DNA of 61,233 bases, the filler included. It is 4 parts of 4 records of this genome, joined end to end, with 100 filler letters (N's around TTAATTAATTAA, not from the genome) between each part and the next. Parts side by side here need not be neighbours in the genome. Positions count along the whole stretch, not along the records: positions 1 to 11,787 come from SRR31156797_25453; 3 more parts are not named here. The stretch is one strand, 5' to 3'. Below are positions 2,837-17,525 of the stretch, piece after piece. Position 1 is the stretch's first letter. Every line of letters begins with the position of its first letter. The notes beneath the pieces were generated by a model. The model worked only from the letters and a program-made list of their open reading frames with translations. It was not told the DNA's origin and ran no database searches. Both the position numbers and the translations under genes were made by a program.

Positions 2837-2838
2837 CT

Positions 2839-2868: not shown

Positions 2869-2888
2869 CTCTTAATATAGGAGGTACT

Positions 2889-3584: not shown

Positions 3585-3587
3585 AAA

Positions 3588-3617: not shown

Positions 3618-3637
3618 ACTCTATTGAAGGAGTAAGT

Positions 3638-3997: not shown

Positions 3998-4301
3998 ATG
4001 TCCAGTATGCCAGTCCACCAATATATCAACCTACAGACATCCTGGGGCAAAACGGTGGTGTGATGACTGTGGATTTGTCCTTCAGGAGGAAGGCCACGGA
4101 GTCTTTCAGGAACAGCCGTGTTTAACCCAGAAATTCATAAAGCGAGACACCGTGGTGAAGTCCTCTGAGAGGAATGACCCGCACGCAGCACCCTTCGTGG
4201 CCTGCCGTTCATCAGAGGTCTTTGAGCTAGAGCAAAAGATGTTGGAACTTCAAACAGAGAACCGTGAGCTGAAAAGGCAATTATCTGCAAAGAATACTTG
4301 A
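3990..4301 (+). CDS. Zn-ribbon hypothetical protein with C-terminal coiled coil
   Basis: CPVC...CDDCG; LEQKMLELQTENRELK. Confidence 0.7.
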   Translation: MSKCPVCQSTNISTYRHPGAKRWCDDCGFVLQEEGHGVFQEQPCLTQKFIKRDTVVKSSERNDPHAAPFVACRSSEVFELEQKMLELQTENRELKRQLSAKNT

Positions 4302-4334
4302 CATCGATACGAGGCCATGATAAGGTCTTATCAT
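4298..4334 (+). promoter_or_regulatory. sigma70-like promoter with dyad over -10
   Basis: TTGACA-N17-TAAGGT; inverted repeat ATGATAAG-gt-CTTATCAT at 4317-4334. Confidence 0.7.
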
Positions 4335-4355
4335 AAGCAAACCAATAGGAGTTTT

Positions 4356-4607
4356 ATGATGAGATTTGAACTGTGGCTGGATACTTTTCTGGAAGAAAAG
4401 GGAATCAATTTAGCTAAGCGATTCGAAGTCGTCAGCGACACCTCAGGTCTTACACATAATATGCCCTATTCAAAAGTTGTCGAGAGTATTAAAGTTACAG
4501 GTAAAGCGGAGCAGGCCGCTATCAAAGATATGCTTGTTCGTATCGATTTTGTGAACGGTGATGTTTGTGACTACCTGAGACACCTCGGGAAAGCCTTTGC
4601 CTTCTAA
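4356..4607 (+). CDS. Conserved phage hypothetical protein
   Basis: WLDTFLEEKG...LVRIDFVNGDV..YL.HL pattern recalled from phage proteins; AGGAG RBS supports start at 4356. Confidence 0.75.
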   Translation: MMRFELWLDTFLEEKGINLAKRFEVVSDTSGLTHNMPYSKVVESIKVTGKAEQAAIKDMLVRIDFVNGDVCDYLRHLGKAFAF

Positions 4608-4621
4608 AGGAGAGTTTAAAC

Positions 4622-4855
4622 GTGGAAATTCTGAATGTAATTGAGCAGGCTGAGGAAAAGGCCCGGCAGTATGCTTATGGGAATGATTCTGAGATGATCA
4701 AGAGCCACTGTCGGAGGTTCCTGAAGGACGTTGAGTATTTACGGGATAATATTATTGAACATGATATTCATGATGAAGATGGTTATCAGATTCAGATGGC
4801 TGAGAACTTCTTCAATGTCTTCAACATGCTGGCTACTCAGGAGCTGGGTCTGTGA
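4622..4855 (+). CDS. Acidic hypothetical protein
   Basis: AAGGAG RBS, GTG start. Confidence 0.7.
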   Translation: MEILNVIEQAEEKARQYAYGNDSEMIKSHCRRFLKDVEYLRDNIIEHDIHDEDGYQIQMAENFFNVFNMLATQELGL

Positions 4856-5064
4856 GCTTTCGGTATAGACGACGGTTTAAGATTATGGGTGGACTTGGTG
4901 TAAACCTGAGTAAGAAAGGCGCTTCACTGTCGTACCGTGGTAAGCGGGGATCTGTGAGTGAAAGGGGCGTATCCGTTCGGACTGGGGTTAAAGGGCTGTC
5001 CTATGCAATTTCATGGGCAGTCATTGGACTTATCATTATGGCTCTGATAGGGCTGTTTCTGTAG
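4852..5064 (+). CDS. DUF4236-like small protein with C-terminal TM
   Basis: FRYRRRFKI..GL.VNLSKKG.S.S...G...GLSY then a hydrophobic tail. Confidence 0.7.
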   Translation: MSFRYRRRFKIMGGLGVNLSKKGASLSYRGKRGSVSERGVSVRTGVKGLSYAISWAVIGLIIMALIGLFL

Positions 5065-5073
5065 GATAGACGA

Positions 5074-5439
5074 ATGACCAAAGGTATGTTGAATCTTCTC
5101 CAGAAGGTGCTCAAGGCTTCCCGTGAAGGTAAAGAGCTCCGGGTGTATGATGGCCGTCAGCTCCCGCTGGCATATAAGCTGAAGGCGGAAGGCGTTGTCA
5201 CCCTGAACACCGAGAAATACACCAAGACCGTGATACTTGCACCTGCGCAGGATGTTGTGCGTCTTTCTGGCTATGATGTGACTCTGGAGCAGTTCTATGA
5301 GGCACACCGGATCATCCGTCAGAGAAAGAGATGGTTTATCTATGATCAGGATGAGCAGAACAGCATCGAGTTGTCGGTAGGTGAGAAACAGTACATCATT
5401 TCCACCAGCGGTACATCATCGGAGTTGATAGATTGGTGA
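5074..5439 (+). CDS. Hypothetical phage protein
   Basis: ORF in operon, followed by terminator. Confidence 0.7.
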   Translation: MTKGMLNLLQKVLKASREGKELRVYDGRQLPLAYKLKAEGVVTLNTEKYTKTVILAPAQDVVRLSGYDVTLEQFYEAHRIIRQRKRWFIYDQDEQNSIELSVGEKQYIISTSGTSSELIDW

Positions 5440-5452
5440 TTTTACAACCAAG

Positions 5453-5479
5453 CCCACCTATTCAGGTGGGTATTTTTTT
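5453..5479 (+). terminator. Intrinsic terminator (CCCAC/GTGGG family)
   Basis: CCCACCT-attc-AGGTGGG + TATTTTTTT. Confidence 0.8.
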
Positions 5480-5507
5480 CTCTAAAAAATTCAATCCCGG
5501 AGTACTT
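5478..5507 (+). promoter_or_regulatory. Putative phage-specific promoter, copy 3
   Basis: TTCTCTAA-N16-GTACTT directly after the terminator; RBS GAAGGAG, ATG 5535. Confidence 0.75.
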
Positions 5508-5534
5508 ACTCAGTAAAAAATTGAAGGAGTACTT

Positions 5535-5912
5535 ATGAATTATCGAATTGAAGAGGGCGAAGCCCGGATCCCCTTAACAGAGCTCAACCGTTTGAATGAT
5601 GGGTTTAAGAAGCTGGAGCAGGCTGAAGAAGCTTTCAATCGAGAGCGTAAAAGAGTCATTGATGAATGGGAAAAGAATTGTAAGGAGTTTATCAATACCT
5701 CTGGGATACAGTACATTCTGGTGGAAAGAATGCATTGGAATAATTCACATCATTTCAGGTCATCGCAGAATTATTACCAAGAAGAACACGAAAAAGCTCT
5801 TTTAGAGACGGCTTTTGGAGAGGGACATTCCAGCCTCGACCGTTGGCTACGTACCACCCCCCGGAAAACTTTATTGAAAGCACTGTTTTCCTTGGGGAGA
5901 AGACATATATGA
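5535..5912 (+). CDS. Hypothetical phage protein
   Basis: RBS and ORF. Confidence 0.7.
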   Translation: MNYRIEEGEARIPLTELNRLNDGFKKLEQAEEAFNRERKRVIDEWEKNCKEFINTSGIQYILVERMHWNNSHHFRSSQNYYQEEHEKALLETAFGEGHSSLDRWLRTTPRKTLLKALFSLGRRHI

Positions 5913-6358
5913 AAACCCCAGACGATATAAACACCCCCATCGAGTTCCTGAGGGTGCATGGCTTTGATAATCGTGTGCATGTTGGTGCAGATGCTGAGAC
6001 CGGCACTAAGCGATTCACGTCAGACCTGATGGGAAGTTGGGCAGAGTCTGTGACGCGGCGGCTGGTCAATGATGTGGTCCAGACCAAACTGGAAAACGTC
6101 GAGCTCCAGCGCAGAATGATGCAGAAAGGCCATAACGAGTATATGGAACTTCATATACTTCAGAAGAATATGAACCATGCCATCGCCCACTTACGTAGAG
6201 GGATCGCCGAGGCCGAGAAGCGGGAACGTAGCGCACGAGAATATCTTGATCAAGTGCATGGTGATTTCGAAGCGGAGCCTGAGGCCTTAGGGTATGTGCG
6301 CACTGCGGAAGAACTGAAAGATGCACTCAGTGAGGTGCTTAAGATCCTACTGCGATAG
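5909..6358 (+). CDS. Hypothetical phage protein
   Basis: ATGA overlap with upstream stop and GGGGAG RBS favour start 5909. Confidence 0.7.
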   Translation: MKTPDDINTPIEFLRVHGFDNRVHVGADAETGTKRFTSDLMGSWAESVTRRLVNDVVQTKLENVELQRRMMQKGHNEYMELHILQKNMNHAIAHLRRGIAEAEKRERSAREYLDQVHGDFEAEPEALGYVRTAEELKDALSEVLKILLR

Positions 6359-6396
6359 TATTATATGATACTATCATGGGCTTAAAAGGAGAAAGC

Positions 6397-6537
6397 ATGA
6401 AGCAGTGTCCCCACTGTGGTGGTTGGATCATCGGTGATGGGTTCTAAGAGCCTCCACATTACGAGATGGTAGATCTACCGCTTGATGTGCCGGTGGATTC
6501 CCCAGTGATCCTCTGTGCACCTCCAGACAACAATTAA
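6397..6537 (+). pseudogene. Small Cys-containing phage gene interrupted by in-frame TAA (6445-6447)
   Basis: AAGGAG RBS; MKQCPHCGGWIIGDGF*EPPHYEMVDLPLDVPVDSPVILCAPPDNN; frame stays open after the stop. Confidence 0.55.
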
Positions 6538-6545
6538 GCTTTATC

Positions 6546-6573
6546 AACCCACTGGGAATTCGGTGGGTTATTT
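6546..6573 (+). terminator. Intrinsic terminator (CCCAC/GTGGG family)
   Basis: AACCCACTG-ggaatt-CGGTGGGTT-ATTT. Confidence 0.7.
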
Positions 6574-6595
6574 ACAAGAAAATCGCATAAAGAGA

Positions 6596-6632
6596 TTGAC
6601 GGATACGACATGACGTAGTAGTGTTTTGTCAT
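6596..6632 (+). promoter_or_regulatory. sigma70-like promoter with short dyad
   Basis: TTGACG-N17-TAGTGT; ATGAC-N13-GTCAT flanks the -10. Confidence 0.65.
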
Positions 6633-6655
6633 AAGCTAAGTCAAGGAGTAGTTAG

Positions 6656-7423
6656 ATGACGATTAAGCATAACAAAGGTTTCTTTAAAGATGAGAAAATT
6701 CTGGCAGAGATATCTGTAACCAGAGAGGATTTTGGTGAGATTGAAATTAGCCCCAACTCCTTCGAGAATTCCCGCTGGTCCAAGACGGCGAGGGTTCAGC
6801 TTATAGCTACCATGAAGCCTGAGTCTTGGAAGGCCCTCTGTGATACCTGCAAAGGTCTGAGACATGATCATGCACGTCAGCTTACGAATGCTACGTATGA
6901 TGGTGGAAAGGTTGCGAGAGATCCCTCCCACAGTCTGACCTATCGGGGCATCCGCACCGAAGAGAAGAAAGAGGAAAAGTTCAACAAAGCTCTTGATCAG
7001 ATTAAGCAGAGGATCGAGGAGAAAACCCCGGATGCGATGATTCAGGAGGCTATTGCTGAACTGAATGCTACCTATGCTAAGATTGTAGAGTCGATTCGAA
7101 AGGACGACATTGTACATTCCTGCACCAGTATTATGTCTGAAGGGATTATGGATCAGGTGGATAAGAGTCTGATGGAGCAGGACTCCTTTGTTGATACGCT
7201 GTCTGAGATTGAAGAGGCAGAGAAGGCTTTGGAAGCCGCAGAAAAAGCTTATCGCACTGCACTCCAGAAGAAGGCACAGGCACAAAAGACTCTTCTGTTG
7301 ACTGAGCTGAATGAGACACCTGTGGAAGATGCACAGCTTAAGGAGTGCTTGATCGAAAAGGTTGAGTCTTGGGAAATTGATAAGGTAGGGCGTCCAACTT
7401 TCAAGAGAATGAGAAGAGGTTAA
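6656..7423 (+). CDS. Hypothetical protein, coiled-coil C-terminal half
   Basis: AAGGAG RBS; E/K/A-rich helices. Confidence 0.75.
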   Translation: MTIKHNKGFFKDEKILAEISVTREDFGEIEISPNSFENSRWSKTARVQLIATMKPESWKALCDTCKGLRHDHARQLTNATYDGGKVARDPSHSLTYRGIRTEEKKEEKFNKALDQIKQRIEEKTPDAMIQEAIAELNATYAKIVESIRKDDIVHSCTSIMSEGIMDQVDKSLMEQDSFVDTLSEIEEAEKALEAAEKAYRTALQKKAQAQKTLLLTELNETPVEDAQLKECLIEKVESWEIDKVGRPTFKRMRRG

Positions 7424-7426
7424 GAA

Positions 7427-7804
7427 ATGAAGCCAATTACCAGAGCCGGGTTCAAGAAGGTAGTGACCTACGAACAGATCTGCCCCAATTGTCTGAAAAT
7501 GATTCAGCTTAAGAAGTTGCCTGATATCCTTGATGTAATCACCTGTGAGCACTGTAAGGAAGTTCTGGAGGTCGCGTCTCTGAAAAATTACTCACACTCT
7601 GCACAAAGTGCACTTTTCCGGGAGGATGGACATATTGATGTACTGGAGTTCCGGAAGCGGTTCGGGTTCAGAACCCAAAAGGAGTTGGCTGTGTACATGG
7701 ACTGCTCCTCAAGAACCGTTGAGGCATGGGAACAGCAGATCCGGTATCCCGGCCCTCGATGCCTGCGGATCATGGAGCGCGTGATAGCTGACGGGAAGCA
7801 ATAA
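7427..7804 (+). CDS. Zn-ribbon + XRE-type HTH protein
   Basis: CPNC...CEHC then FRKRFGFRTQKELAVYMDCSSRTVEAWEQQIRYP. Confidence 0.8.
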   Translation: MKPITRAGFKKVVTYEQICPNCLKMIQLKKLPDILDVITCEHCKEVLEVASLKNYSHSAQSALFREDGHIDVLEFRKRFGFRTQKELAVYMDCSSRTVEAWEQQIRYPGPRCLRIMERVIADGKQ

Positions 7805-7810
7805 AATAGG

Positions 7811-7836
7811 CCCACCATTACGGTGGGATTCATTTT
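7811..7836 (+). terminator. Intrinsic terminator (CCCAC/GTGGG family)
   Basis: CCCACC-attac-GGTGGG-attcatttt. Confidence 0.6.
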
Positions 7837-7857
7837 GCCAAGAATAACGCAATAAGC

Positions 7858-7888
7858 GATAGGAAAGCACGACAAGTAGTAGTAATAT
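7858..7888 (+). promoter_or_regulatory. Promoter cassette homologous to 6594-6624
   Basis: Gapless 31-nt alignment GAT..ACGACA..GTAGTA..; -10 TAATAT, degenerate -35 TAGGAA. Confidence 0.5.
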
Positions 7889-7918
7889 GAGTTATCAACA
7901 AGCACGAGAGATAAAGCC

Positions 7919-8170
7919 ATGAGAGAACTGAAGGACGTCAAAGAGAGACTGGAAGAAGTTGAAAAGATGATCGAGATCTACACCGGAAGTATGAAGAGTG
8001 TATGGACCTATGAGCAGAGGGATTATTTCCAGTCAAAACTGATTGGGTTGCGACATGAAAGAGGTAGCTTGAAGTCTGATATTCGCTACATGGAAACGGG
8101 GTATCCTTTGGAAGATGCATTCATGGCTGATCTGGATAAAATGTTTGATAAGAGGGAAGGACAGAAATGA
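7919..8170 (+). CDS. Hypothetical phage protein
   Basis: First ORF after the cassette. Confidence 0.7.
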   Translation: MRELKDVKERLEEVEKMIEIYTGSMKSVWTYEQRDYFQSKLIGLRHERGSLKSDIRYMETGYPLEDAFMADLDKMFDKREGQK

Positions 8171-8682
8171 AGAATATTGAACTTTGGCCGGTGATGAAAA
8201 CCATAGCACCGGTCTTTGATGAATCACTCCCGTGGAGTGAGTCTGAAAGGTATCCTATTGGGGGTACAATGTACTGTGACAATGAACCGAGTAAGGCTGT
8301 CAATATTACCGATTATGTGATGGTTCGAGGGCTTATTGGCAAGGACCTGACCATCCTTCCGCAGGTAGTCCGGGAGTTCGTTGAAGCTCAGATTGCCGAA
8401 GGACAGGAGATCGTGGATAACCCGGCGTATGCTACTGAGAATCTGGCAGAGGCTGTCGGTGGTAGTATCTTCAAAGTGTATGAACTGGGGTTCTATGCAC
8501 CGGGGACTACAGAAGGGAAGTATCAGGACACCGGATCAGTGAAGGGGTCAGTGTTCTACCGGATGCACACCGATTCTGAGAACTTCTCCTTCTCCTTCTC
8601 CCATGTGCTGGAGATCCCCTATCATCCGGGAGCAGTAGAGCAGGTTGGAGGTTGGTTTAAAGACCTCGTAGAAGCTCCCTGA
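8167..8682 (+). CDS. Acidic hypothetical phage protein
   Basis: ATGA overlap with upstream gene. Confidence 0.75.
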   Translation: MKNIELWPVMKTIAPVFDESLPWSESERYPIGGTMYCDNEPSKAVNITDYVMVRGLIGKDLTILPQVVREFVEAQIAEGQEIVDNPAYATENLAEAVGGSIFKVYELGFYAPGTTEGKYQDTGSVKGSVFYRMHTDSENFSFSFSHVLEIPYHPGAVEQVGGWFKDLVEAP

Positions 8683-8739
8683 GCCATTCAGGTGCCTAAT
8701 GGACACCCATTACCTTTAAAGCCTTGTTGATGCAATATG

Positions 8740-8777
8740 GCCCTCTGAGAGAGATTCTCAGGGGGCTTTTCTTTTTT
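8740..8777 (+). terminator. Intrinsic terminator
   Basis: GCCCTCTGAGA-gagat-TCTCAGGGGGC + T run. Confidence 0.85.
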
Positions 8778-8805
8778 CTCTAAAATACCAGAGCTCTGAG
8801 TACTT
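8776..8805 (+). promoter_or_regulatory. Putative phage-specific promoter, copy 4 (probably leaderless transcript)
   Basis: TTCTCTAA-N16-GTACTT; only 7 nt separate GTACTT from ATG 8813. Confidence 0.75.
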
Positions 8806-8812
8806 AGAAGGT

Positions 8813-9106
8813 ATGAAGTATAGTCAAGATCCAACCTGCGACATGTGCGAGTTTAACGGAGGCCCCGGTATCGGTTGTGATACTCCGGTCTGTGTTCGCC
8901 GCCACGTCACCCCACCACTGAAAGTCGTCTGTCCTATTTGTAAAGGAACCGGCGAGGTATATATGGATTCCAACGGAGATCCTGTGCATCCCTACAAGGC
9001 TGAGCATAAGAAAAAGTGCCCTTGTGTTGATGGCATCGTAGCCCGCCCCGGACTTCCCAAGCCCCAGTATGAGGTGATAGGGGCAGATGAAGGGGAACCA
9101 GAATGA
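8813..9106 (+). CDS. Cys-rich Zn-finger protein (CxxCxGxG)
   Basis: CDMC, CPICKGTG, CPCVDG. Confidence 0.7.
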   Translation: MKYSQDPTCDMCEFNGGPGIGCDTPVCVRRHVTPPLKVVCPICKGTGEVYMDSNGDPVHPYKAEHKKKCPCVDGIVARPGLPKPQYEVIGADEGEPE

Positions 9107-9549
9107 AGGCAACCGTTGATGCAATCTTAGAGGAAGCCCTCTCCTTGTTGGAGTACATCAGGGATGAACGTAATGACTATATTACAATGCGCCGGTCGGT
9201 AAGAGTCTTCTTGCGAAGAGCAAAGCAGAAGTTGGAGGGTACGGAAAAAGCACCATGCCTGACATGTGAGCTCCGGGAAGTGGAAATGCACAAAATGGAC
9301 GTACGGTGCAAGAAGCTGGAGGCACAGTTGGGTAAGGCCCGTACGACCCTTCAATCCCTGAACGCAATGGGAGGGCTGGGGTTCCGTGCTCATGATCTGA
9401 TCGACGCGGCAATGGACTACTGTACAGAGGATAACTGTGCGACCTGCGGAACCGATGATGGGCAGGATTGCCGGGAGTGTTTTCAAAATGATGATCCCTT
9501 AAAACCAATTCTTGTGGATCACTGGAGACCTAAGGGAAACAAAGAATGA
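9103..9549 (+). CDS. Hypothetical protein with Cys clusters
   Basis: ATGA overlap; CLTC, CATC, CREC. Confidence 0.7.
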   Translation: MKATVDAILEEALSLLEYIRDERNDYITMRRSVRVFLRRAKQKLEGTEKAPCLTCELREVEMHKMDVRCKKLEAQLGKARTTLQSLNAMGGLGFRAHDLIDAAMDYCTEDNCATCGTDDGQDCRECFQNDDPLKPILVDHWRPKGNKE

Positions 9550-9665
9550 AGAAGTGGATCAAGAAAGCTTTTCCAGAGCTGTGCCTTATCGCTGTGATTA
9601 TAATCGGACTCTGGAGAAAGCGAGGGATGAACGAAGATCCCGGGTGGAGTGAAAATGCTGTTTAA
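9546..9665 (+). CDS. Small membrane peptide (39 aa, not in ORF track)
   Basis: MKKWIKKAFPELCLIAVIIIGLWRKRG...; ATGA overlap, fills the operon gap. Confidence 0.55.
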   Translation: MKKWIKKAFPELCLIAVIIIGLWRKRGMNEDPGWSENAV

Positions 9666-9846
9666 AAAGAAATATTTCGTGAGCTTTGTGGGAAGCACCG
9701 GCTCTGAGGTTGTGCAGGTTGGCTGGTCCACCGTTGATAGTAGTGGGCGAATAAAGACTACGGAAGACCTTGAGAGGTTGTCAGAGCATCTGATGAAAGA
9801 GAAAGGGTATGAGAAGCTGACAATTCTAAGCTGGAGGAAGATGTAA
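9649..9846 (+). CDS. Hypothetical phage protein
   Basis: Coupled ORF. Confidence 0.65.
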   Translation: MKMLFKKKYFVSFVGSTGSEVVQVGWSTVDSSGRIKTTEDLERLSEHLMKEKGYEKLTILSWRKM

Positions 9847-10151
9847 TGCACAACAAATGCCCAAAGTGCAGTGCAAATGTGGCTCAGTTCCCCGGCTATG
9901 ACGGGATAATGTGTTCTGCCGGTTGTGGATGGTATGAGTTCTCTGATACACCCAGAGAGAAAGATTGGACCATTGTCCATTCCTCCATGACGCTGGAGGA
10001 TCTTCTGACCGCTCAGCGAGATGAGGCCATAGAACTTTTCGAGTGGCTTCGCTCGGACTCAAATATCTACAGGCACTCAAAAGCCCTCCAAAAAATCCGG
10101 GAGTTACTGGATCGTTGGGGGATTCCCAGACCTGAGGACTCTGAATTGTAG
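9846..10151 (+). CDS. Zn-ribbon hypothetical protein
   Basis: CPKC...CSAGCGW; TAATG overlap. Confidence 0.7.
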   Translation: MHNKCPKCSANVAQFPGYDGIMCSAGCGWYEFSDTPREKDWTIVHSSMTLEDLLTAQRDEAIELFEWLRSDSNIYRHSKALQKIRELLDRWGIPRPEDSEL

Positions 10152-10170
10152 CGTACGCTACAATTTTCTT
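10144..10170 (+). terminator. Perfect 22-bp palindrome, probable terminator
   Basis: AATTGTAGCGTACGCTACAATT followed by TTCTT. Confidence 0.55.
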
Positions 10171-10180
10171 CAGAAAACTA

Positions 10181-10219
10181 TTGTTTCCGCATCTTGATTT
10201 GTGTATAATTAAATCAAGA
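10181..10219 (+). promoter_or_regulatory. sigma70-like promoter with 9-bp inverted-repeat operator
   Basis: TTGTTT-N17-TATAAT; TCTTGATTT-N10-AAATCAAGA brackets the -10. Confidence 0.75.
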
Positions 10220-10231
10220 CAAGGAGGGAAG

Positions 10232-11002
10232 ATGAAAGAATATAAGATTGAGTCAGTGGAAGGGGTTTGGTTTCTCAAAGGACGGACTCTTCAGGGGATG
10301 AAAACTCAAGCCTCTCGAATGGTAAGCGCCCCCACCACACACATTGACATTTATCTCTATCGTACATGGACCACTTCGAAGAAGAATGCAGCGATTCTCA
10401 ACACTCTTCTCTCGGAAAAACGATACGGAAAATGGAGAGATACAGACGCCGTTGCAGAAGTCCCCACCCATGGCGGGAAACGTCCCGGCGCCGGGCGTAA
10501 AAAAGAGTCAGCGGAAGAGTCTTTCGTCCTGCCAATTCGTTTTCCTGAGAGCTGGAGAGTTGGCATGGGGGACAATATGACCCGATTTGTAAAGAGTGTC
10601 GTAAAGACCCAGATTGAGATAGAGAAGGGGGATCTGCGGCAGGCCTTTGAAACATGGTTCGAAGAGAATGATGGATCGCCGGTCAATAGTTATTTTGTCT
10701 TCAATGAGGCTGATGATGAATACGAAATGAATGGGAGCCGATATGAGACCATCGATGAGGTTGAGCTCTGGGGTGTGAATAAGGCTTACCGGGCTTTTAA
10801 GCTGACGGCCAAGAAGGAGAAGCGGGACAAGCTCATGGAGCAGGGGATGAGCTGGTTCATGACCTATGCAAAGAAGGTTCGGGATTATGTTGAAGGTACA
10901 GCGAATGCTCTTCATCAGGAACTGCCGCACAGCATGAAAGAGAACCTGTGCAACATCAAAGATGCACATGAGTATTTTATGACGGAAGGTTGGGAAAATT
11001 AG
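10232..11002 (+). CDS. Multidomain protein: AcrIF9-like N-terminus (tentative), GGxRxGAGR + RHH-like DNA-binding module, acidic C-terminus
   Basis: AAGGAGG RBS supports ATG 10232; THGGKRPGAGRKK...FVLPIRFPESW. Confidence 0.7.
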   Translation: MKEYKIESVEGVWFLKGRTLQGMKTQASRMVSAPTTHIDIYLYRTWTTSKKNAAILNTLLSEKRYGKWRDTDAVAEVPTHGGKRPGAGRKKESAEESFVLPIRFPESWRVGMGDNMTRFVKSVVKTQIEIEKGDLRQAFETWFEENDGSPVNSYFVFNEADDEYEMNGSRYETIDEVELWGVNKAYRAFKLTAKKEKRDKLMEQGMSWFMTYAKKVRDYVEGTANALHQELPHSMKENLCNIKDAHEYFMTEGWEN

Positions 11003-11120
11003 TAAAGCTAAGGAATTTAACTAATTCTTAACAATAACATACCGATTGGTATGTAGACAGATCCAAGTCTGCCTCTTAAAGTAGCCCTCCCCTGTAATGG
11101 TGTTTTTTTTGTGCCACCAT

Positions 11121-11149
11121 TTGAAAGTTCGTGAAAAAATGACTATTAA
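11121..11149 (+). promoter_or_regulatory. sigma70-like promoter
   Basis: TTGAAA-N17-TATTAA. Confidence 0.4.
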
Positions 11150-11180
11150 ACCATAACATATCGATATGGAGGTGCAGTTT

Positions 11181-11786
11181 ATGCACAAGCTACAGGAAAG
11201 CCGCTATACCTTCGGTATCCGTTCGGATCTCGCTCATTTCAGCGATACTGAGGGGCTGGTTGCGGTTTTTGAAGACTACGACACCAAAGAGTACTTTGCC
11301 TCCGAGCCCATGACTAAGGATGTTATTCCTGATTTCTGTGAAGACATCGTGGTTAAGTCTGGTGGGGTTATGTGTCTCCTCCAGTGTCTCACTGTAGAGC
11401 GGTTCAACCGCAAATATGCACAAGGTTCATTTGTTCAGGACAGAGGTCTTTTCAAGATCACAGCTCTAAAGGAATCCAAACCTTTTACACAATTTGGGGT
11501 GATGAAAGAAAAACTACAAACTAAAACTACTCTGAGAGAAGCTTCAGAGATCAAACTTGAACAGCTTCCTCCGGAGAAGCAAGCTGCTTTCCAGCAGATC
11601 AGAAATGCACTGGGGAATATGGTGAGTAGAGTGATCGGTGTATTTGACGGTATCCACGGCTACATCGTAATTGTAGAATCTGACCATGGCGTTCGGATCG
11701 GCCCCGAAGAAATGAAGGACCTTATGAAGGTCCCGGACTTCAGGTGGATTGAAGGAAACGATGTCGGAGCCTCCATAGGCTTCTAA
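11181..11786 (+). CDS. Hypothetical protein, possible internal head protein
   Basis: GGAGG RBS; repeated L-x-E-[SA] motifs (KLQES, ALKES, TLREAS). Confidence 0.7.
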   Translation: MHKLQESRYTFGIRSDLAHFSDTEGLVAVFEDYDTKEYFASEPMTKDVIPDFCEDIVVKSGGVMCLLQCLTVERFNRKYAQGSFVQDRGLFKITALKESKPFTQFGVMKEKLQTKTTLREASEIKLEQLPPEKQAAFQQIRNALGNMVSRVIGVFDGIHGYIVIVESDHGVRIGPEEMKDLMKVPDFRWIEGNDVGASIGF

Positions 11787-11787
11787 A

Positions 11788-11887
11788 NNNNNNNNNNNNN
11801 NNNNNNNNNNNNNNNNNNNNNNNNNNNNNNNTTAATTAATTAANNNNNNNNNNNNNNNNNNNNNNNNNNNNNNNNNNNNNNNNNNNN
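11788..11887. other. Artificial contig spacer (N run + TTAATTAATTAA)
   Basis: 100-nt N block with a six-frame stop linker; composition and gene content change abruptly across it. Confidence 0.98.
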
Positions 11888-12310
11888 CTTCAGATAGCGA
11901 TAGTGCGCGTTCTCGGGACTCAGGGACACGAGTTCATCGGCCACGGCCAGTGCCGCCTGGCGATCGGTGCCATGAGTATCCAGCAACTGTTCCGCCAGTT
12001 GAGCCAGAAAGAACTCATTCTCAGGATGCTGCGATGCCAGGTCGCCCAGTTCCTGGTCGTTGGGGTCTCCCAGACAGTAGCGCAGCATCTCGCCGGCCTC
12101 GGGGTCGGCCGCGAACGCCTTCTCCGAGACGGTCGGGACGGCCTTGGGCTTGCTGCGCCCGCTGCGGGCATAGCGCCAGATGAGTCGACCGTTCGGGATT
12201 TCATAGAGTGTGGCACCGACGCAGACAACGGCTATGGCCAGCCACACTCGCCTCCTGAATTGCATGAACATCTCCGCATCGCAGCTTGAGTCTTTGTCTT
12301 CGTAGTGCAT
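11888..12310 (-). CDS. TPR-like membrane protein paralog 4 (3' end cut by contig edge)
   Basis: N-terminal TM, TLYEIPN, QHPENEFFL, PENAHYRYL shared with neighbours. Confidence 0.8.
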
Positions 12311-12403: not shown

Positions 12404-14221
12404 TCAAGGCTGGCTGGGGGGTGCCTCGTGCAGGGTGTCCCAATCCGCCAGGGCCTTGCGGACGATGGGCAGGACGTCGCGCGGGTAGCTTGCCCAGCGA
12501 GCCTCCAGTTGCGCGGGGGACACGGCGCGGCGTGGATCGGTTTGCCGCTGGGCGAAATACGCCTCCATGTCCTCGGGCGCGAAGTAATAGAAGTGTTCGG
12601 GCAAGGCTCTGGTCTTCCGGCGGCCCAGTTCGCTGGCGTCGGCGCAGATGAAACGCTCATACGTCTCCTGCGTCGCGGCGGGAATATTGGGATATACGGA
12701 CAAGGGATTGGCCCATATCTTACTTTCGTAAGCGCGTTGGGCCCCGAAGACATCGAATCCGATCAATGCCACGGCCCAGACGATAACCGTTGCGAACGCG
12801 AGATTGTATCGCGGTCGTCGGAAGCTCACCGGCGGTTTCAATGTGAACACCCATAGAAGCAGACAAAGGGCCGACCAGACAGCAAACACGCCCACGTTCT
12901 GTGACCATCCTGCAAAGTGACTCGAACTGAAAAATTCGCTGTTGCTCATTAGGAGCAGCAGTGTGCCGTTGAACCACAACAGTACGTAGGCGGTTCGGCT
13001 TCGCCACGGGTACTGCTCGGGATGATCCATATCGGCAATGCTCACATGCAGCAGCCTATTCGGATAATCCAGCCATGAAAACCACACCAGATACCAAGGG
13101 AAGGTGAGCAACGCCAGCGCCCATACCCCTGCGGAGCGCCATCTGTGCGCCACGATCACCACCAGCAATCCGATCAGCATGAACGCGCCCGGAATGCTGC
13201 GCAGGCCACGATTCGGTGTTGGGTGGGTTTCATCCGGCCACACTCTGCGTTTGGCGAATAGCGCCAAGGTTATGCAGAGCAGTAGGAGCCCTGTGAATGC
13301 CCACGCCATCCACAAAGGCAGCGCTGAATGACTGGGCCACGTGTCGAGAATCATCGGAGTTGGCAAATCATCGAGCGCGAGGGCCTGTGCCAGACGCCGA
13401 CGGGCCTGCCACCCCTCGTCTTCGGTCAGGGGCAACTCTCGGAGTCTGGTCTGCTCCAGTTCTTCCGCCAGTGAGACACCGGTACGCAGGGACTCCCGGT
13501 CGTATGCGTCATCGATGACTCTGTCTGCCACGTTGGTGGCCAAAGCCATCAGTTGGCGGAACGATTCCTGATCCATGCCCTCCCAATCCGCCATGTCGAT
13601 GATGCGATGCCCCAGGAAATCGTATAACCACAGGTCAATTCGGGGTCCCTCGTGTCCAGGCACGACGGCTTCCTCTGCCAGGCGGGCCACACGGTGCTTG
13701 TACTTGCTATAGGGTAGATAGAACTCGGTCAGTCGATCGGCTTCCCGGAATTCCCCGAGGATCTCGCCGGCATAGCCTTCAGCTTCCGGAGTCCGGAACA
13801 GCACCCAGGCCCGCAGATAGTGGGCGTGGGCGTTGTTCGAATTGACGGCCAGGAGTTTGTCTGCGGTGGCCAGAGCCTCGTTGGGATCGGCATGCTTGCC
13901 AAACGCGAGTCGTGTGGCCAGTTCGGACAGGAAGAACTCGTTCTGGGGATATTGAGCGACCAAGTCTCTCAACTCGGTGATGGTGTTGGGATCGCTGTAA
14001 CGGTGCTTGAGGACAAAGCGCAAGACAGCGCCGGCCTCAGGATCGTGGGCGGCGACGCTTTTCGGTACGGACGGCGTGCCGTTCCGGCCCAAGCCGACGA
14101 ACACATTCCGAACGTACCACAAGCTGTCCACGGCATGGGGATACTCATAGATTGTCCCCGCGATACACAACGCCACCATCGCGGTCCACACCAGGGCTGT
14201 CCGTATCGTTGGCCTCGTCAC
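12404..14221 (-). CDS. TPR-like/multi-TM protein paralog 3 (605 aa)
   Basis: N-terminal TM, TPR-like helices, FYLPYSKYK, about 6 TMs, C-terminal soluble domain. Confidence 0.85.
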   Translation of the reverse strand: MTRPTIRTALVWTAMVALCIAGTIYEYPHAVDSLWYVRNVFVGLGRNGTPSVPKSVAAHDPEAGAVLRFVLKHRYSDPNTITELRDLVAQYPQNEFFLSELATRLAFGKHADPNEALATADKLLAVNSNNAHAHYLRAWVLFRTPEAEGYAGEILGEFREADRLTEFYLPYSKYKHRVARLAEEAVVPGHEGPRIDLWLYDFLGHRIIDMADWEGMDQESFRQLMALATNVADRVIDDAYDRESLRTGVSLAEELEQTRLRELPLTEDEGWQARRRLAQALALDDLPTPMILDTWPSHSALPLWMAWAFTGLLLLCITLALFAKRRVWPDETHPTPNRGLRSIPGAFMLIGLLVVIVAHRWRSAGVWALALLTFPWYLVWFSWLDYPNRLLHVSIADMDHPEQYPWRSRTAYVLLWFNGTLLLLMSNSEFFSSSHFAGWSQNVGVFAVWSALCLLLWVFTLKPPVSFRRPRYNLAFATVIVWAVALIGFDVFGAQRAYESKIWANPLSVYPNIPAATQETYERFICADASELGRRKTRALPEHFYYFAPEDMEAYFAQRQTDPRRAVSPAQLEARWASYPRDVLPIVRKALADWDTLHEAPPSQP

Positions 14222-16044
14222 GGTCCTGTCTCCGTCTCATGGATCTGTTCGGCTGTCGTCTCCGGGACGGCGCGGCTGTCAATTGTGGCCTGAATGATCG
14301 GCCGCACGTCGCGGGCCGAACGCCACAGCACGCTGCGAAGCTGCTCTTCGGAGAGGGCTCTGCCCTCAGCTCGGCGCCGGGCCAGAAACGCCTCCATGTC
14401 CTCGGCTGTAAAGTATCGGATGTATTCGGGCAGGGCATGGGCTCCGTCGGCATCCAGGTCGTCCAGCGGGCCTGCGTCGCGGATGAAGCGCTCGTAGGTC
14501 TGCTGGGTCGCCACAGGAATGCGGCCGTACGCGGGCAAGGGATTCGCCCAGATCTGATGCTCGTAGGCGCATTGAGCTCCCCAGACATCGAACGCGACCA
14601 GCGCCGCGGCCCAGTACATGGCCCCCACCAGCGCGCGGTTACGTCGCGGCTGCCGCAGGCTCATCCGGGGCCGCAGCATGGATAACCATAGAAGGATACA
14701 GAAAGCAAGCCACGCGGCAAAGACGCCGATGTTCTGCGTCCATCCTGCCAGGCTGCCTGACGTGAAGAACGTGCTATTGCCGAGCAGAAGGAGCAGTGTG
14801 CCGTTGAGCCAGAACAGGATTTGCGCGGTCCTGCTTCGCCAGGGTGATCGCCTGGGACCGACTGCATCGACAATGCGGACGGATAGCAGCGATTCGGCAT
14901 CACCCATCCACGAAATCCACAGCATGAGCCAGAGGCATGTGAGCAATAGGGCCGCCCAGAATTCGGCCCGAAACCATCCGTGCAAGACGAACAGCGCCAG
15001 CCAGGCGATCGGAACGAAAGCCCAGGATGTAATGCGAAGACGCCGGGCCAGCTTCAAATGAGCGGTGTCTGGCCATGCCTTACGTTTCGTGAGCAGGGCC
15101 AGGATGAGGTTCTGAACCAGGGCCGCAAGGGAGAACCACGCGGCGATGGGCAGGATCGGTACTCCGCTATGCCATGTGAGGGAGAACCGTCGATCTCGCC
15201 AGCGGCTGATTGCGATGGCCTGCGCCAGACGCTGGCGGGCTTGCCCAGCCTCTACTGCGGTCAGGTCCAGTTCTCGGAGTCTGATCTTCTCCACATCTTC
15301 CGTCAACTCGGCGCCGGCGCGGAGGGACGCCAGGTCGTAGGCGTTCTCGACGACTCTGGCAGCCATGTTGGCGGCTGAAGGCAGCAGTTGGTGGAAGGAT
15401 GGTCGATCCATCTCTCGCCAGCGGGTTGTGCTGGTAATGCGCGATCCCAGACTTCTATAGGGCAGCAGGTAGAGCCATGGTCGTCTATCGCTGGGCAGGG
15501 CGGCTTGGCCGGCCAGTCGGGCCACGCGGTCCTTGTACTTCCCATAGGGCAGATAGAACTCAGGCACCCGATCGGCCTGTTCGAACGCGCCGAGAGTCCC
15601 ATTGCGACGTATCGAAGCCCGTGGTTGCACCCAAGCCCGCAGATAGTGGGCGTGGGCGTTGTCGGGATTGACAGCCAGCAGTTGGTCGGTTACAGCCAAG
15701 GCCTCGTTGGGGTCGGCATGTTTGCTGCGGTTGAGTCCCTCGACCAACTGGGACAGGAAGAACTCATTCTGAGGATGTTCCGCCACCAAGTCCCTCAGTT
15801 CCGACACGTTGGGATCGCTGTAGCGGTGTTTGAGGACATAGCGTAAGATGACGCCGGCCTCGGGGTCCTGGGCGACCAGCCTATCCGGTACCAGCGTCGT
15901 AGCGCTTCTCTCCGGACCGGAGAACACGTTTCGAATACGCCGGAGACTGCTCACAGCGTTGGGGAATTCGTAGATGGTGCCAGTGATACAGAGCACCGCG
16001 ATCGCGCTCCACACCAGGGTTGTCTGTATCGTGGGCCTCTTCAC
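14218..16044 (-). CDS. TPR-like/multi-TM protein paralog 2
   Basis: Collinear with paralog 3; GTG start at 16044 (VKRPTIQT vs MTRPTIRT). Confidence 0.85.
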   Translation of the reverse strand: MKRPTIQTTLVWSAIAVLCITGTIYEFPNAVSSLRRIRNVFSGPERSATTLVPDRLVAQDPEAGVILRYVLKHRYSDPNVSELRDLVAEHPQNEFFLSQLVEGLNRSKHADPNEALAVTDQLLAVNPDNAHAHYLRAWVQPRASIRRNGTLGAFEQADRVPEFYLPYGKYKDRVARLAGQAALPSDRRPWLYLLPYRSLGSRITSTTRWREMDRPSFHQLLPSAANMAARVVENAYDLASLRAGAELTEDVEKIRLRELDLTAVEAGQARQRLAQAIAISRWRDRRFSLTWHSGVPILPIAAWFSLAALVQNLILALLTKRKAWPDTAHLKLARRLRITSWAFVPIAWLALFVLHGWFRAEFWAALLLTCLWLMLWISWMGDAESLLSVRIVDAVGPRRSPWRSRTAQILFWLNGTLLLLLGNSTFFTSGSLAGWTQNIGVFAAWLAFCILLWLSMLRPRMSLRQPRRNRALVGAMYWAAALVAFDVWGAQCAYEHQIWANPLPAYGRIPVATQQTYERFIRDAGPLDDLDADGAHALPEYIRYFTAEDMEAFLARRRAEGRALSEEQLRSVLWRSARDVRPIIQATIDSRAVPETTAEQIHETETGP

Positions 16045-16061
16045 TTGGGTGTCTCCCTCTC

Positions 16062-17525
16062 TCATCGATTTGTTCGGCCGCCGTCACGGATGAACTGCTC
16101 ATAGGTTGTCTGGGCCGTCCCCGACAGTGGGCGGTAGTGCGAAAATGGGTCGGCGTGGGCGCGATTGATGCGGCGCCAGTGAGCGCCAGAGATCTCCAGG
16201 GTCATGAGGAAGATCGCGAATCCCATGACGGCCAGGAGAGCGACGCCGTGGGGGAGGCGTCCCAGCAGCGGGCGCCGATCGAGGGTGGCCGCCCAGAATA
16301 GCAGCTGGCACAGTAAGGACCAGAAGCACACAAAGGGGACCAGCGGTCGCCACGCCGGGTCGTGTGCTGAGGAGGCGAGGTGGCCACTGCCGACGACCAG
16401 GAAGACCACGCCGTTGAGCCAGAACATCGCATAGGCGCCGGCCAGCCACAGCCGCGACTCAGTAGAGTTGTCAATTACAGCAGAGGACAGAACCATAGCG
16501 AAGATGATCCAGATAAAGGACGCTTGCAACAGGAAGCAGGACGCGACGCGCCTTGTCTGGTCGGATTGCTGGAGCCACAGCAGGATGAGCAGGAAGGCGA
16601 GCAGAGCGAACTGCAGCAGGCAGGCTCTGGTCGGCGTGGCCCCCTTTCCGCTCTCGCCTTCTCTGTGGCGATACAGCATTGGGCATGTGATGCAGATCAC
16701 AATCAACAAGACCAGCGGTGCAGCAGGCAACACGCTCGTGGATATCAGATCGTTGCTCACGTTGCCGGGACGCCAGTCCATGCGCCATTCATCCAGTGTC
16801 TCGGCTCGGGCCACATGGTAGCGCGCTCGGGCGGCTTCCTCGGTTGTCCGCTCTAGTCTCTCGAGTCGGGCCCGTTCTGTCGTTTGCAGGAGAGAGATAG
16901 CTGGTGAGAGCGACTCGAAATCGTAGGCCCGGTCGATCAGGCGGGTGGCCATGACGACGGCTGCATCCGCGAGTCGGCGCCACGATTCGAGACCGAGTTG
17001 GTTGCCCCGTTCGACGTCACGCGCGATGAAGGGTCCCAGGTCCCCATAGAAGGGGAAAGTATATCCTCGATCGTCCCGGTCGAGGACGGCCTTGCCGGCC
17101 AGCCGGTCGACACGCGTTTTGTACTTGCTGTAGGGCAGATAGAACTCGGGCAGCGCATGTCCGGCTTCGAATTCCGCCATCGCCTCGTCGAAAGACTCGG
17201 GTTCCGTCCGGGCCTCCAGAATCGCCCAGCCGCGCAAGTAGCGATAGTGGGCATTGTCCGGGTTCACGGCCAGCAGGCGATCGACGGTCTCCAGGGTTTC
17301 AGACAGCTCGACGTCGTCGGCTTCGATCAGGTCCTCCGCCAGACGGGCCAGGCAGAACTCGTTCTGCGGATACCGGATTATCAGACGCCGCAGTCGGTTC
17401 GGCTGGGGATCTTCGTAGTCATAAGCCACACGATAGCGCAGGAGTGCACCGGCCTCGAGGTCGTCTTTGATCAGTTTCTCGGGCACGGCTCGCAAGGGAT
17501 CATCCTGGGCATCTCTCCCGGCACC
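16062..17525 (-). CDS. TPR-like/multi-TM protein paralog 1 (5' partial, C-terminal domain deleted)
   Basis: Same motifs; frame open to contig edge; ends at YEQFIRDGGRTNR. Confidence 0.8.
   Translation of the reverse strand, partial: GAGRDAQDDPLRAVPEKLIKDDLEAGALLRYRVAYDYEDPQPNRLRRLIIRYPQNEFCLARLAEDLIEADDVELSETLETVDRLLAVNPDNAHYRYLRGWAILEARTEPESFDEAMAEFEAGHALPEFYLPYSKYKTRVDRLAGKAVLDRDDRGYTFPFYGDLGPFIARDVERGNQLGLESWRRLADAAVVMATRLIDRAYDFESLSPAISLLQTTERARLERLERTTEEAARARYHVARAETLDEWRMDWRPGNVSNDLISTSVLPAAPLVLLIVICITCPMLYRHREGESGKGATPTRACLLQFALLAFLLILLWLQQSDQTRRVASCFLLQASFIWIIFAMVLSSAVIDNSTESRLWLAGAYAMFWLNGVVFLVVGSGHLASSAHDPAWRPLVPFVCFWSLLCQLLFWAATLDRRPLLGRLPHGVALLAVMGFAIFLMTLEISGAHWRRINRAHADPFSHYRPLSGTAQTTYEQFIRDGGRTNR

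Follow-up and report, generated by a model that had tools for sequence, protein, structure and literature searches.

A multi-domain ribbon-helix-helix protein of a phage-like element with a palindromic operator candidate over its own promoter

Ribbon-helix-helix (RHH) proteins insert a two-stranded beta ribbon in the major groove of DNA, and their signature includes a G-x-S/T/N turn ahead of helix 2. The fold is often one part of a larger design. NikR joins its RHH to a C-terminal oligomerisation domain and binds a long palindrome, the operator of the E. coli protein having a 6-N16-6 geometry, and antitoxins typically pair an RHH with an extra partner-binding domain and are subject to autorepression. 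Similar arrangements are described around anti-CRISPR (Acr) genes: Aca14, a stand-alone RHH Aca, is reported as a regulator binding an inverted repeat (IR) that overlaps the -10 (PMC13551039), and AcrIE10 is described as occupying the IR of its promoter in the form of a dimer of dimers (PMC13530269). AcrIF9 (PDB entry 7CHR) has the topology beta-beta-alpha-beta-beta, in which two beta-hairpins are joined by one helix (PMC7714069), and its conserved positions are given as Y5, K31, R32, A34, K36, Q38, W54, K58 and R63 (PMC8034650).

The locus considered here lies in a window of 61,233 nucleotides, the whole stretch of DNA that was analysed, filler included, where N/TTAATTAATTAA linkers join a phage-like contig of about 11.8 kb (1-11787) to Maridesulfovibrio-like contigs. 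On this contig, surrounded by small orphan genes, is the gene for a 256-aa protein, P0001. A sequence-only reading had described a TTGTTT-N17-TATAAT promoter with a perfect 9-bp IR bracketing the -10, which direct reading of the sequence confirms, driving a gene of three parts (an N-terminal domain, a GGKRPGAGRKK plus RHH-like segment, and a tail), a layout that the sequence also bears out. The features are as follows.

10144..10165, + strand: palindrome, perfect over 22 bp, arms AATTGTAGCGT/ACGCTACAATT, then TTTTCTTC (IR scan; 11-nt arms, 100% complementary)
10181..10186, + strand: -35-like hexamer TTGTTT, a 3/6 match to TTGACA (read from sequence)
10192..10200, no strand assigned: left IR arm TCTTGATTT, candidate operator half-site (inverted-repeat scan)
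10204..10209, + strand: -10 hexamer TATAAT, perfect, with a 17-nt spacer from the -35 (read from sequence)
10211..10219, no strand assigned: right IR arm AAATCAAGA (inverted-repeat scan)
10221..10227, + strand: ribosome-binding site AAGGAGG, with ATG 4 nt further on (read from sequence)
10232..11002, + strand: coding sequence of P0001, 256 aa, ATG at 10232, stop at 11000-11002 included (translation, single uninterrupted ORF)
10232..10465, + strand: N-terminal region, residues 1-78, basic (pI 9.85), without detectable relatives (composition)
10472..10504, + strand: basic arm GGKRPGAGRKK, residues 81-91 (family alignment)
10520..10624, + strand: RHH core, residues about 97-131, strand FVLPIRF, helix, MGDN turn, helix (homology via relatives)
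10637..10771, + strand: acidic segment, residues 136-180, net charge -11 (13 D+E, 2 K+R; composition)
10772..10999, + strand: C-terminal segment, residues 181-256, near-neutral (pI 8.7), predicted to form three helices (low-confidence model)

The two 9-bp arms of the IR (10192-10219) are 100% complementary, with 10 nt between them and centres 19 bp apart, and the -10 hexamer at 10204-10209 falls within their spacer. A consensus promoter scan missed this promoter because TTGTTT matches TTGACA at just three of six positions. Taken singly, neither the promoter motif nor the repeat is remarkable, each being within chance: TTGnnn-N16-18-TATAAT occurs once in the contig and at least once in 20% of 300 dinucleotide shuffles, and a single perfect IR with arms of at least 9 nt is about what chance provides per 11.8 kb (shuffle mean 1.03 nested repeats). 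The contig holds 11 nested perfect repeats of this kind, at 5 distinct sites, a count reached by none of 300 dinucleotide shuffles. Since neither element is remarkable singly, the case for an operator rests on the exact superposition of IR and -10, 22 nt ahead of the first codon of a gene for a DNA-binding module; the chance of such a superposition of repeat, promoter and gene is estimated at roughly 10^-3, from shuffle rates and without simulation. Written as TCTTGA-N16-TCAAGA and allowing up to three mismatches, the operator candidate has 32 matches in the window against 30.35 expected, itself the sole perfect one. No second full copy occurs across the window, and this uniqueness fits autoregulation rather than a regulon. 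The 9-nt arms and their 19-bp centre spacing differ from the classic tandem-subsite RHH operator.

Upstream of the promoter, the 22-bp palindrome overlaps the stop codon of the preceding ORF (9846-10151) and, as RNA, forms a hairpin of -13.5 kcal/mol (z = -4.29; equally stable shuffles, 0 of 200). The terminator scan did not call it, and Rfam returned no families on the contig. The palindrome is probably an intrinsic terminator, and such a hairpin in this position would make the P0001 gene a transcription unit of its own; a second operator is the alternative reading. The IR over the -10 can likewise be read differently. It may be an RNA hairpin acting on stability or ribosome access, a site for another factor or simply fortuitous, with the targets of the RHH module lying elsewhere, possibly in the rest of the phage genome, which is sampled here over 11.8 kb only. 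The RNA of 10186-10226 does fold at -13.6 kcal/mol (z = -4.90; none of 200 shuffles matching that stability), pairs flanking this hairpin reach into the ribosome site, and one perfect 9-nt repeat per contig is expected by chance. Against this, a transcript from the predicted start (~10216) would retain no more of the right arm than its final few bases, the hairpin with its U-run upstream argues against strong read-through, and exact bracketing of the contig's sole promoter-like site would be an unlikely coincidence. We regard a repeat that is not an operator for P0001 as unlikely.

The identity of the middle module comes from its relatives. A phmmer search of P0001 against 1.84 billion representative proteins gave only two matches at E <= 0.001, each aligned to residues 78-132; these two closest relatives are 58-61 aa long (E = 2.4e-6 and 6.9e-4) and 50% identical in the search alignments (46% over the whole alignment). 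A profile built from the module and these two relatives drew in 64 small proteins of 47-93 aa at E <= 0.001, eight of which carry a precomputed PF01402 (RHH_1) assignment, and a Pfam scan of the family matched RHH_1 in 11 of 65 aligned members and RHH_5, RHH_3 and CopG_antitoxin in fewer. The arm residues GG..GAGRK are invariant in all 65, and P0001 and its two closest relatives share GG, R, GAGRK, the MGDN turn and several core positions without change. Searched against the PDB, the three-sequence profile matched nothing, and the 65-sequence profile gave 13 sequences at E <= 10 (best E = 0.01, 2bj1), namely NikR (8), CopG (2), B. subtilis MazE/EndoAI, the HicB3 C-terminal domain and ORF56, all of which we take to be RHH proteins. 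The alignment FVLPIRFPESW...MGDN MTRFVKSVV displays the strand-helix-turn-helix pattern with its turn before helix 2, and a low-confidence AlphaFold2 model places a strand at 97-102 and a helix at 106-125. Compared directly with Pfam and with NCBIfam, each at E <= 10, residues 76-140 matched no family, RHH models included, and the assignment is therefore transitive, through the relatives. By sequence comparison, residues 78-132 are homologous to a family of small RHH proteins, and the earlier claim of a DNA-binding RHH-type module in the middle segment finds support in that homology, in the RHH_1 members and in the RHH-only PDB matches.

The arm motif is common: viral contigs contain at least 594 stretches with it, and one such stretch (L057) lies just upstream of a 403-aa ORF whose product, judged by eye, looks like a large terminase. 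Among the upstream regions of five loci encoding distant relatives of the arm or module, one has a 7-nt palindrome (L067), a GC palindrome at L064 runs across the point where the match begins, and no consistent operator was seen upstream of the five. This comparison is uninformative, because the matches are mostly to the arm only and the gene at L053 directly follows another ORF.

Taken together, we read P0001 as a DNA-binding RHH protein of several domains, encoded by a phage or phage-like element and most likely repressing its own promoter, and we consider this reading fairly probable. The RHH module and the palindromic operator candidate over the -10 of its own promoter make self-regulation reasonable to propose, as the sequence-only reading had done; the likeness to AcrIF9 that it attached to this proposal finds no support (below). 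We infer DNA binding to the IR, autorepression and an oligomeric state along the following lines. The beta-strands of two chains (~FVLPIRF, residues 98-104) would pair into a two-stranded ribbon entering the major groove, and the GGKRPGAGRKK arm would add backbone or minor-groove contacts. One RHH dimer would occupy each arm of TCTTGATTT-N10-AAATCAAGA, with a flanking domain of P0001 tying both into a dimer of dimers that would cover the -10 hexamer and block RNA polymerase. Expression would then come as a burst on entry, followed by shut-off.

The 'acidic tail' of the earlier description is accurate for residues 136-180 and fails for residues 181-256, which are near-neutral. AlphaFold2 without an alignment gave a pLDDT of 34.0 for full-length P0001 and 41.7 for residues 1-78, values too low for a fold search. 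Both low-confidence models have a short N-terminal beta-hairpin (strands ~4-9 and ~12-17) and a helical stretch at residues 50-61, and the C-terminal segment is modelled as helices at 180-191, 195-227 and 233-253 (pLDDT about 42-46). A two-copy complex prediction for residues 136-256 scored 0.01 against a mark of 0.32, which speaks neither for nor against binding. Residues 1-78 and 136-256 could be oligomerisation, sensing or effector domains, and an oligomerisation or partner-binding role is possible for residues 181-256. An apparent L.G..TQ resemblance had suggested a HicB-like N-terminal domain; this was rejected on the score of a 30-sequence Desulfovibrionaceae HicB profile, which gives P0001 -1.7 bits, below the top score of 4.1 bits among 500 shuffled versions of residues 1-135.

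Neither flanking region (1-78 or 136-256) has a detectable relative in the libraries searched, the 1.84 billion representatives among them, and P0001 matched nothing in Pfam, NCBIfam or PHROGs. Relatives of the whole protein were likewise found neither by word-index search (near and shorter lengths), nor by tblastn against 50,697 phage records, nor by pattern scans of viral, metagenome and genome contigs, nor in 301 Desulfovibrionaceae genomes or the 5 nearest genomes. The ESM Atlas gave a best score of 0.80 for whole P0001, to unnamed viral clusters and below lead level, and its feature search gave no usable match for residues 1-78. For the neighbouring genes at 8167-8682 and 11166-11786, viral contigs yielded no relatives, and the contig has neither a phage megablast match nor a DNA match in the 5 nearest genomes, which leaves no syntenic locus for comparison. 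P0001 being known from a single contig, the three-part fusion has no second witness. A weak Lar-like restriction-alleviation zinc ribbon, scoring under the curated cut-off, is encoded 6 kb upstream of the P0001 gene.

The sequence-only reading had likened the N-terminal domain to AcrIF9, which would make residues 1-72 an AcrIF9-type domain binding Cas7f of the type I-F complex. A few general traits agree with this proposal: residues 1-78 are basic (pI 9.85), the N-terminal beta-hairpin of the two low-confidence models recalls the hairpin with which AcrIF9 also starts (PMC7714069), and 21 of the 301 genomes sampled from the Desulfovibrionaceae, the probable host family, carry Csy3 (Cas7f). The specific traits do not. 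With E <= 10 as the limit, phmmer found no AcrIF9 among all PDB chains, either for whole P0001 (four matches: CorA, PaiB, PAI 2 and PcrA) or for residues 1-78 (five matches, all PEP carboxylase, E = 1.6). The nine conserved positions reported for AcrIF9 (PMC8034650) could not be recovered by a relaxed-spacing pattern, variable solely between blocks, which had 0 matches in P0001, as had each of the sub-patterns [KR][KR].A.[KR].Q, A.[KR].Q and W...[KR]....[KR]; the shorter W...[KR] occurs at W46 and W180 only. Moreover, residues 50-61 are predicted to be helical where AcrIF9 is described with a terminal beta-hairpin (PMC7714069), the ESM Atlas offered no usable match for residues 1-78, and none of the 5 nearest Maridesulfovibrio genomes has Csy3. 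As far as sequence can tell, nothing found links the front part of P0001 to AcrIF9, and we consider such a domain exceedingly improbable.

The extra domains might also be those of an antitoxin-like or partner-controlled, self-repressing RHH protein, of a type II toxin-antitoxin or HicB-type system, in which the acidic/helical C-terminus or the N-terminal domain neutralises a partner such as the 206-aa product of the downstream gene (11166-11786). An RHH with a partner-binding domain and autorepression is the standard antitoxin layout, the order of N-terminal domain, linker and RHH recurs in HicB3 (RHH at residues 89-139), and HicB-like proteins occur in 76 of 151 genomes of the probable host family. 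This reading is nonetheless quite improbable, given the HicB profile score below that of the best shuffle, the lack of a Pfam HicB match, neighbours of which neither matches a toxin family in Pfam, PHROGs, NCBIfam or PADLOC, and a downstream gene that lies 163 nt away with a promoter-like site of its own.

The autorepression reading could also be extended, such that the RHH module autoregulates and one orphan flanking domain inhibits a host defence, CRISPR-Cas or other, on the pattern of AcrIE10, AcrIF24, AcrIIA1 and AcrIF25. The perfect -10, the operator candidate over it and the setting of the gene, probably transcribed by itself and flanked by small orphans on a phage-like contig, would all suit such a protein, as would the weak, sub-threshold Lar-like zinc ribbon 6 kb upstream; P0001 has the Aca-type trait of a DNA-binding domain and an IR overlapping its own core promoter, and its acidic segment (136-180) is, speculatively, compatible with a nucleic-acid mimic. 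Regulator-inhibitor fusions, RHH ones included, are documented in PMC13530269 and PMC13551039. Yet searches of the PDB, Pfam, NCBIfam and PHROGs turned up no described Acr or anti-defence protein resembling P0001, and neither a known acr gene nor a known aca gene lies in the neighbourhood. By far the commoner roles of RHH proteins that regulate themselves are those of plain regulator, antitoxin or partition protein. We regard the extension as decidedly unlikely. No Acr family match was found among the flanking domains and 20 neighbouring ORFs scanned (Pfam, PHROGs, NCBIfam), AcrIE10, AcrIF25, AcrIF24, AcrIIA1, AcrIIA13-15 and Aca14 gave no sequence match to P0001 among PDB chains, and the searches made returned no positive evidence of anti-CRISPR function. 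The fuller version, in which P0001 is a new bifunctional regulator-inhibitor of a Desulfovibrionaceae-associated phage whose basic N-domain or acidic/helical C-domain blocks host defence, is improbable; were it true, partner binding may relieve repression, by analogy with AcrIE10, and the orphan domains would yield one or two new anti-defence folds. To our knowledge, no anti-defence fold is known in this sulfate-reducing host group.

As it stands, P0001 is unexceptional: on the autorepression reading, its gene is a phage orphan that encodes yet another RHH protein regulating itself. The arm and RHH module with the 28-bp operator candidate form a compact, directly testable pair, and flanking domains with no relative among 1.84 billion representatives are candidates for a guilt-by-regulation anti-defence screen, as for Aca-linked genes. 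Even the optimistic reading would add a member rather than a concept, since self-regulating Acr fusions, RHH ones included, have already been described.

Compared with known systems, P0001 stands closest to the small stand-alone GG.R.GAGRKP RHH proteins of metagenomic and phage origin, some of them in RHH_1 (PF01402), which have the same strand-helix-helix layout as residues 78-132. They consist of arm and RHH alone, with the arm ending in KP, whereas the module of P0001 is internal, with 78 orphan residues before it and 121 after, and its arm ends in KK. NikR, whose structure 2bj1 is the best PDB match of the family profile (E = 0.01), likewise joins an RHH to further domains, and the candidate TCTTGA-N16-TCAAGA has the 6-N16-6 geometry of the E. 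coli NikR operator; the likeness does not extend beyond the RHH, which in P0001 is not N-terminal, and Pfam detected no metal-binding ACT-like domain. HicB antitoxins share the order of a ~75-aa domain, a linker and an RHH (89-139 in HicB3), but P0001 continues for another 121 aa at its C-terminus and lacks a HicA-like gene next to it. AcrIF9, at 68 aa, and the N-terminal region of P0001, at about 70-78 aa, are alike only as small basic domains and in the N-terminal beta-hairpin that P0001 may have according to the low-confidence models, and AcrIF9 is a stand-alone protein, reported from Vibrio, Proteus, Aggregatibacter and Xanthomonas (PMC8034650), whereas the N-terminal region of P0001 is fused. 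With the RHH fusions AcrIE10 and AcrIF25 and the HTH fusions AcrIF24, AcrIIA1 and AcrIIA13-15, as these are described, P0001 shares a DNA-binding module within a multi-domain polypeptide (PMC13530269, PMC13551039). Its IR overlaps the core promoter, as reported for Acr fusions and for Aca14, where the IR lies on the -10 (PMC13551039), and its RHH is central, whereas that of AcrIE10 is N-terminal (PMC13530269).

The gene under study lies on the first contig and encodes P0001, a protein of 256 residues. Reading of the sequence, together with a scan for inverted repeats, gave the following features at its start:

10144-10165: perfect 22-bp palindrome upstream of the gene, overlapping the preceding ORF's stop codon
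10181-10186, plus strand: -35-like hexamer TTGTTT (sequence read), 17 nt before the -10 hexamer
10192-10200 and 10211-10219: perfect inverted repeat, TCTTGATTT / AAATCAAGA, arms 10 nt apart
10204-10209, plus strand: -10 hexamer TATAAT (sequence read)
10221-10227, plus strand: ribosome site AAGGAGG (sequence read)
10232-11002, plus strand: P0001 coding sequence (ATG at 10232, stop at 11000-11002), 256 aa

The promoter and the 9-bp inverted repeat that brackets its -10, both proposed in the sequence-only reading, are confirmed by direct reading, and the scan places the -10 hexamer inside the 10-nt spacer between the arms. The position of the ribosome site favors the ATG at 10232 over the TTG at 10181 as the start; the TTG-initiated ORF from 10181 is a mechanical extension of the P0001 frame. 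As RNA, the palindrome at 10144-10165 folds into a hairpin (-13.5 kcal/mol, z = -4.29) with UUUUCUUC after it and is read as a predicted terminator, and the gene would therefore be its own transcription unit. The 163-nt gap after the gene holds a hairpin that lacks a U-run (ACATACC-GATT-GGTATGT, 11037-11054) and a promoter-like TAGACA-N17-TAAAGT (11054-11082), so the downstream 206-aa orphan gene may have its own transcript.

Taken singly, neither the -35, the -10 spacing nor the repeat goes beyond chance. The -35 hexamer matches the consensus at three of six positions, a promoter consensus scan left the site at 10181-10209 uncalled, and TTGnnn-N16-18-TATAAT, with one occurrence in the contig, had at least one match in 20% of the 300 dinucleotide shuffles made. 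For perfect repeats (arms of at least 9 nt, spacers of at most 20 nt), the contig had 11 nested hits at 5 distinct sites, where the 300 shuffles averaged 1.03 and none reached 11; yet one per contig is expected. The unusual point is the superposition, in which the repeat brackets the contig's only such promoter-like site, 22 nt ahead of a gene whose product has a DNA-binding module; by our own unsimulated estimate from the shuffle rates, the chance of this coincidence is on the order of 10^-3. Half-sites are not enriched elsewhere (25 matches with at most one mismatch, 22.4 expected), and the full 6-N16-6 site gave 32 matches with at most three mismatches (30.35 expected), the sole perfect copy being the one described here. 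At five loci with distant relatives of the arm or DNA-binding module, the region ahead of the gene held no consistent operator. It is rather unlikely that the repeat is fortuitous or acts as an RNA hairpin, for which its fold of -13.6 kcal/mol would speak, but a transcript from the predicted promoter would not contain the repeat.

Searches of Pfam, PHROGs, NCBIfam and PADLOC found no family for P0001, and exhaustive phmmer against 1.84 billion representatives returned two matches at E <= 0.001. These proteins of 58 and 61 aa share 50% identity with residues 80-132 and 78-128; both start at the arm (…GGKREGAGRKP…) and stop right after the second helix, so that the middle of P0001 is the counterpart of an entire stand-alone protein. 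A three-sequence profile gathered 64 small proteins, eight with precomputed PF01402, and individual scanning of the 65 aligned members found RHH_1 in 11, RHH_5, RHH_3 and HicB_lk_antitox in two each, CopG_antitoxin in one, and one stray Chisel match. Against the PDB (E <= 10), the 65-sequence profile matched 13 sequences with a best E of 0.01, namely NikR (eight), CopG (two), the B. subtilis EndoAI antitoxin, the HicB3 C-terminal domain and ORF56, all of which we take to be ribbon-helix-helix (RHH) proteins. Because the P0001 segment alone falls below every curated Pfam and NCBIfam model, the predicted RHH assignment is transitive, yet consistent, and the RHH-like middle segment of the earlier reading gains support through its relatives' RHH_1 and PDB matches. 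The GG.R.GAGR arm is very common in viral and metagenomic DNA: by pattern scan, the peptide GG[KA]R[EPK]GAGR occurs in at least 594 viral and at least 597 metagenome stretches, where it heads different small proteins and looks like a portable DNA-binding arm. On the viral stretch L057, an arm-bearing match at 827-1096 is closely followed by an ORF of 403 aa, by eye a putative large terminase.

The sole unusual feature of P0001 is this mid-protein placement of the RHH module, the other two thirds being without known relatives: residues 1-78 and 136-256 had none by phmmer, tblastn against phages or contig patterns, nor in genomes, the PDB, families or the ESM Atlas. The fusion is seen in a single sequence, and the long open frames on either side of the RHH module at 45% G+C argue that both flanking parts are translated. 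Residues 1-78 have a pI of 9.85. What had been described as an acidic tail is acidic at residues 136-180 (13 acidic against 2 basic residues), and the remaining ~75 residues are near-neutral, drawn as three helices in a low-confidence AlphaFold2 model.

The N-terminus had also been likened to AcrIF9, which the available text of PMC7714069 describes as 68 residues forming two beta-hairpins joined by one helix (PDB 7CHR) and for which that of PMC8034650 lists Y5, K31, R32, A34, K36, Q38, W54, K58 and R63 as best conserved. Neither P0001 nor residues 1-78 matched AcrIF9 by phmmer over all PDB chains at E <= 10, where CorA, PaiB, PAI 2, PcrA and PEP carboxylase appeared instead, and a relaxed pattern of those listed positions, with its sub-blocks, had no match in P0001. 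The resemblance is therefore unsupported, and we regard it as extremely improbable that residues 1-72 are AcrIF9 specifically. AlphaFold2, run on single sequences since no alignment can be built for P0001, gave unusable models in two runs (mean pLDDT 34.0 and 41.7); in both low-confidence models residues 50-61 are helical, at the position taken by the second hairpin in AcrIF9. Type I-F Cas7f occurs in 21 of the 301 genomes sampled from the probable host family and in none of the five nearest.

The first contig (1-11787) has a G+C of about 0.45 and dense small same-strand ORFs. Its few family-matched ORFs, which include DUF5662, are phage-typical:

141-533: RyR-domain protein (PF02026, E = 1e-10; phrog_5154, E = 2.6e-43)
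1141-1803, minus strand: HNH endonuclease ORF (family match)
3638-3997: Lar-like ORF, weak C-terminal zinc ribbon (Pfam E = 4.2e-4; TIGR03655 E = 2.7e-4, both under curated cut-offs)

The RyR-domain protein, which tblastn matched to 293 phage records from many host genera, is the clearest sign of a probable phage origin. Lar proteins are restriction-alleviation proteins. The HNH ORF contains the contig's longest perfect inverted repeat, a 26-bp palindrome at 1311-1336 (13-nt arms, AGACAATCTGTTC/GAACAGATTGTCT), and a perfect 9-nt repeat, TACTTACTC-N8-GAGTAAGTA (3613-3638), stands directly upstream of the Lar-like ORF. N runs around TTAATTAATTAA, a six-frame stop linker, join the four contigs at 11788-11887, 17526-17625 and 34600-34699; adjacency across the joins is therefore artificial, and ORFs spanning them (e.g., 11840-12310, with X residues) are artefacts. 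The second contig (11888-17525), with a G+C of about 0.60, far above the rest of the window, carries two adjacent minus-strand paralogous ORFs of ~610 aa (12404-14221 and 14218-16065); its three large ORFs had only sub-threshold TPR matches, with no family for the 477-aa ORF, and it may come from an organism other than that of the Maridesulfovibrio-like contigs. Contigs from 17626 on hold bacterial housekeeping genes, and the third contig's RNase G is 91-99% identical to nine Maridesulfovibrio- or Desulfovibrio-named loci. The DNA of the first contig is absent from the five nearest genomes, and its link to a Maridesulfovibrio-like host is one of co-assembly or binning only.

An RHH module together with a repeat over the -10 suggests binding of that repeat and repression; P0001 is probably an autorepressing RHH regulator, and the DNA-binding and self-regulating half of the sequence-only reading is reasonable. 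An antitoxin-like protein is very unlikely: P0001 shares the domain order of HicB, but a HicB profile from 30 host-family loci scores it at -1.7 bits, under the best shuffles, and no neighbor is toxin-like by Pfam, PHROGs, NCBIfam or PADLOC. RHH proteins are dimers that insert a two-stranded ribbon into the DNA major groove. With operator arm centres 19 bp apart, an autorepressing P0001 would thus place two RHH dimers on the candidate operator, bridged by one more of its domains, and the complex over the -10 would exclude RNA polymerase. NikR reportedly binds its 6-N16-6 operator as two bridged dimers. AcrIE10 also binds its promoter repeat as two bridged dimers, according to the available part of PMC13530269. 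A regulator that also bears an inhibitor domain, a bifunctional protein combining anti-CRISPR (Acr) and Acr-associated repressor (Aca) functions, is unlikely; P0001 shows no positive evidence of it, though it would agree with the promoter logic and phage setting and has precedents with HTH and RHH modules alike in the available portions of the literature. Self-regulating anti-CRISPR fusions are established there for AcrIIA1, AcrIIA6, AcrIIA13-15 and AcrIF24, and RHH-based cases for AcrIE10, AcrIF25 and Aca14 (PMC13530269, PMC13551039); the optimistic reading of P0001 would therefore add a member to a published group and not a concept.
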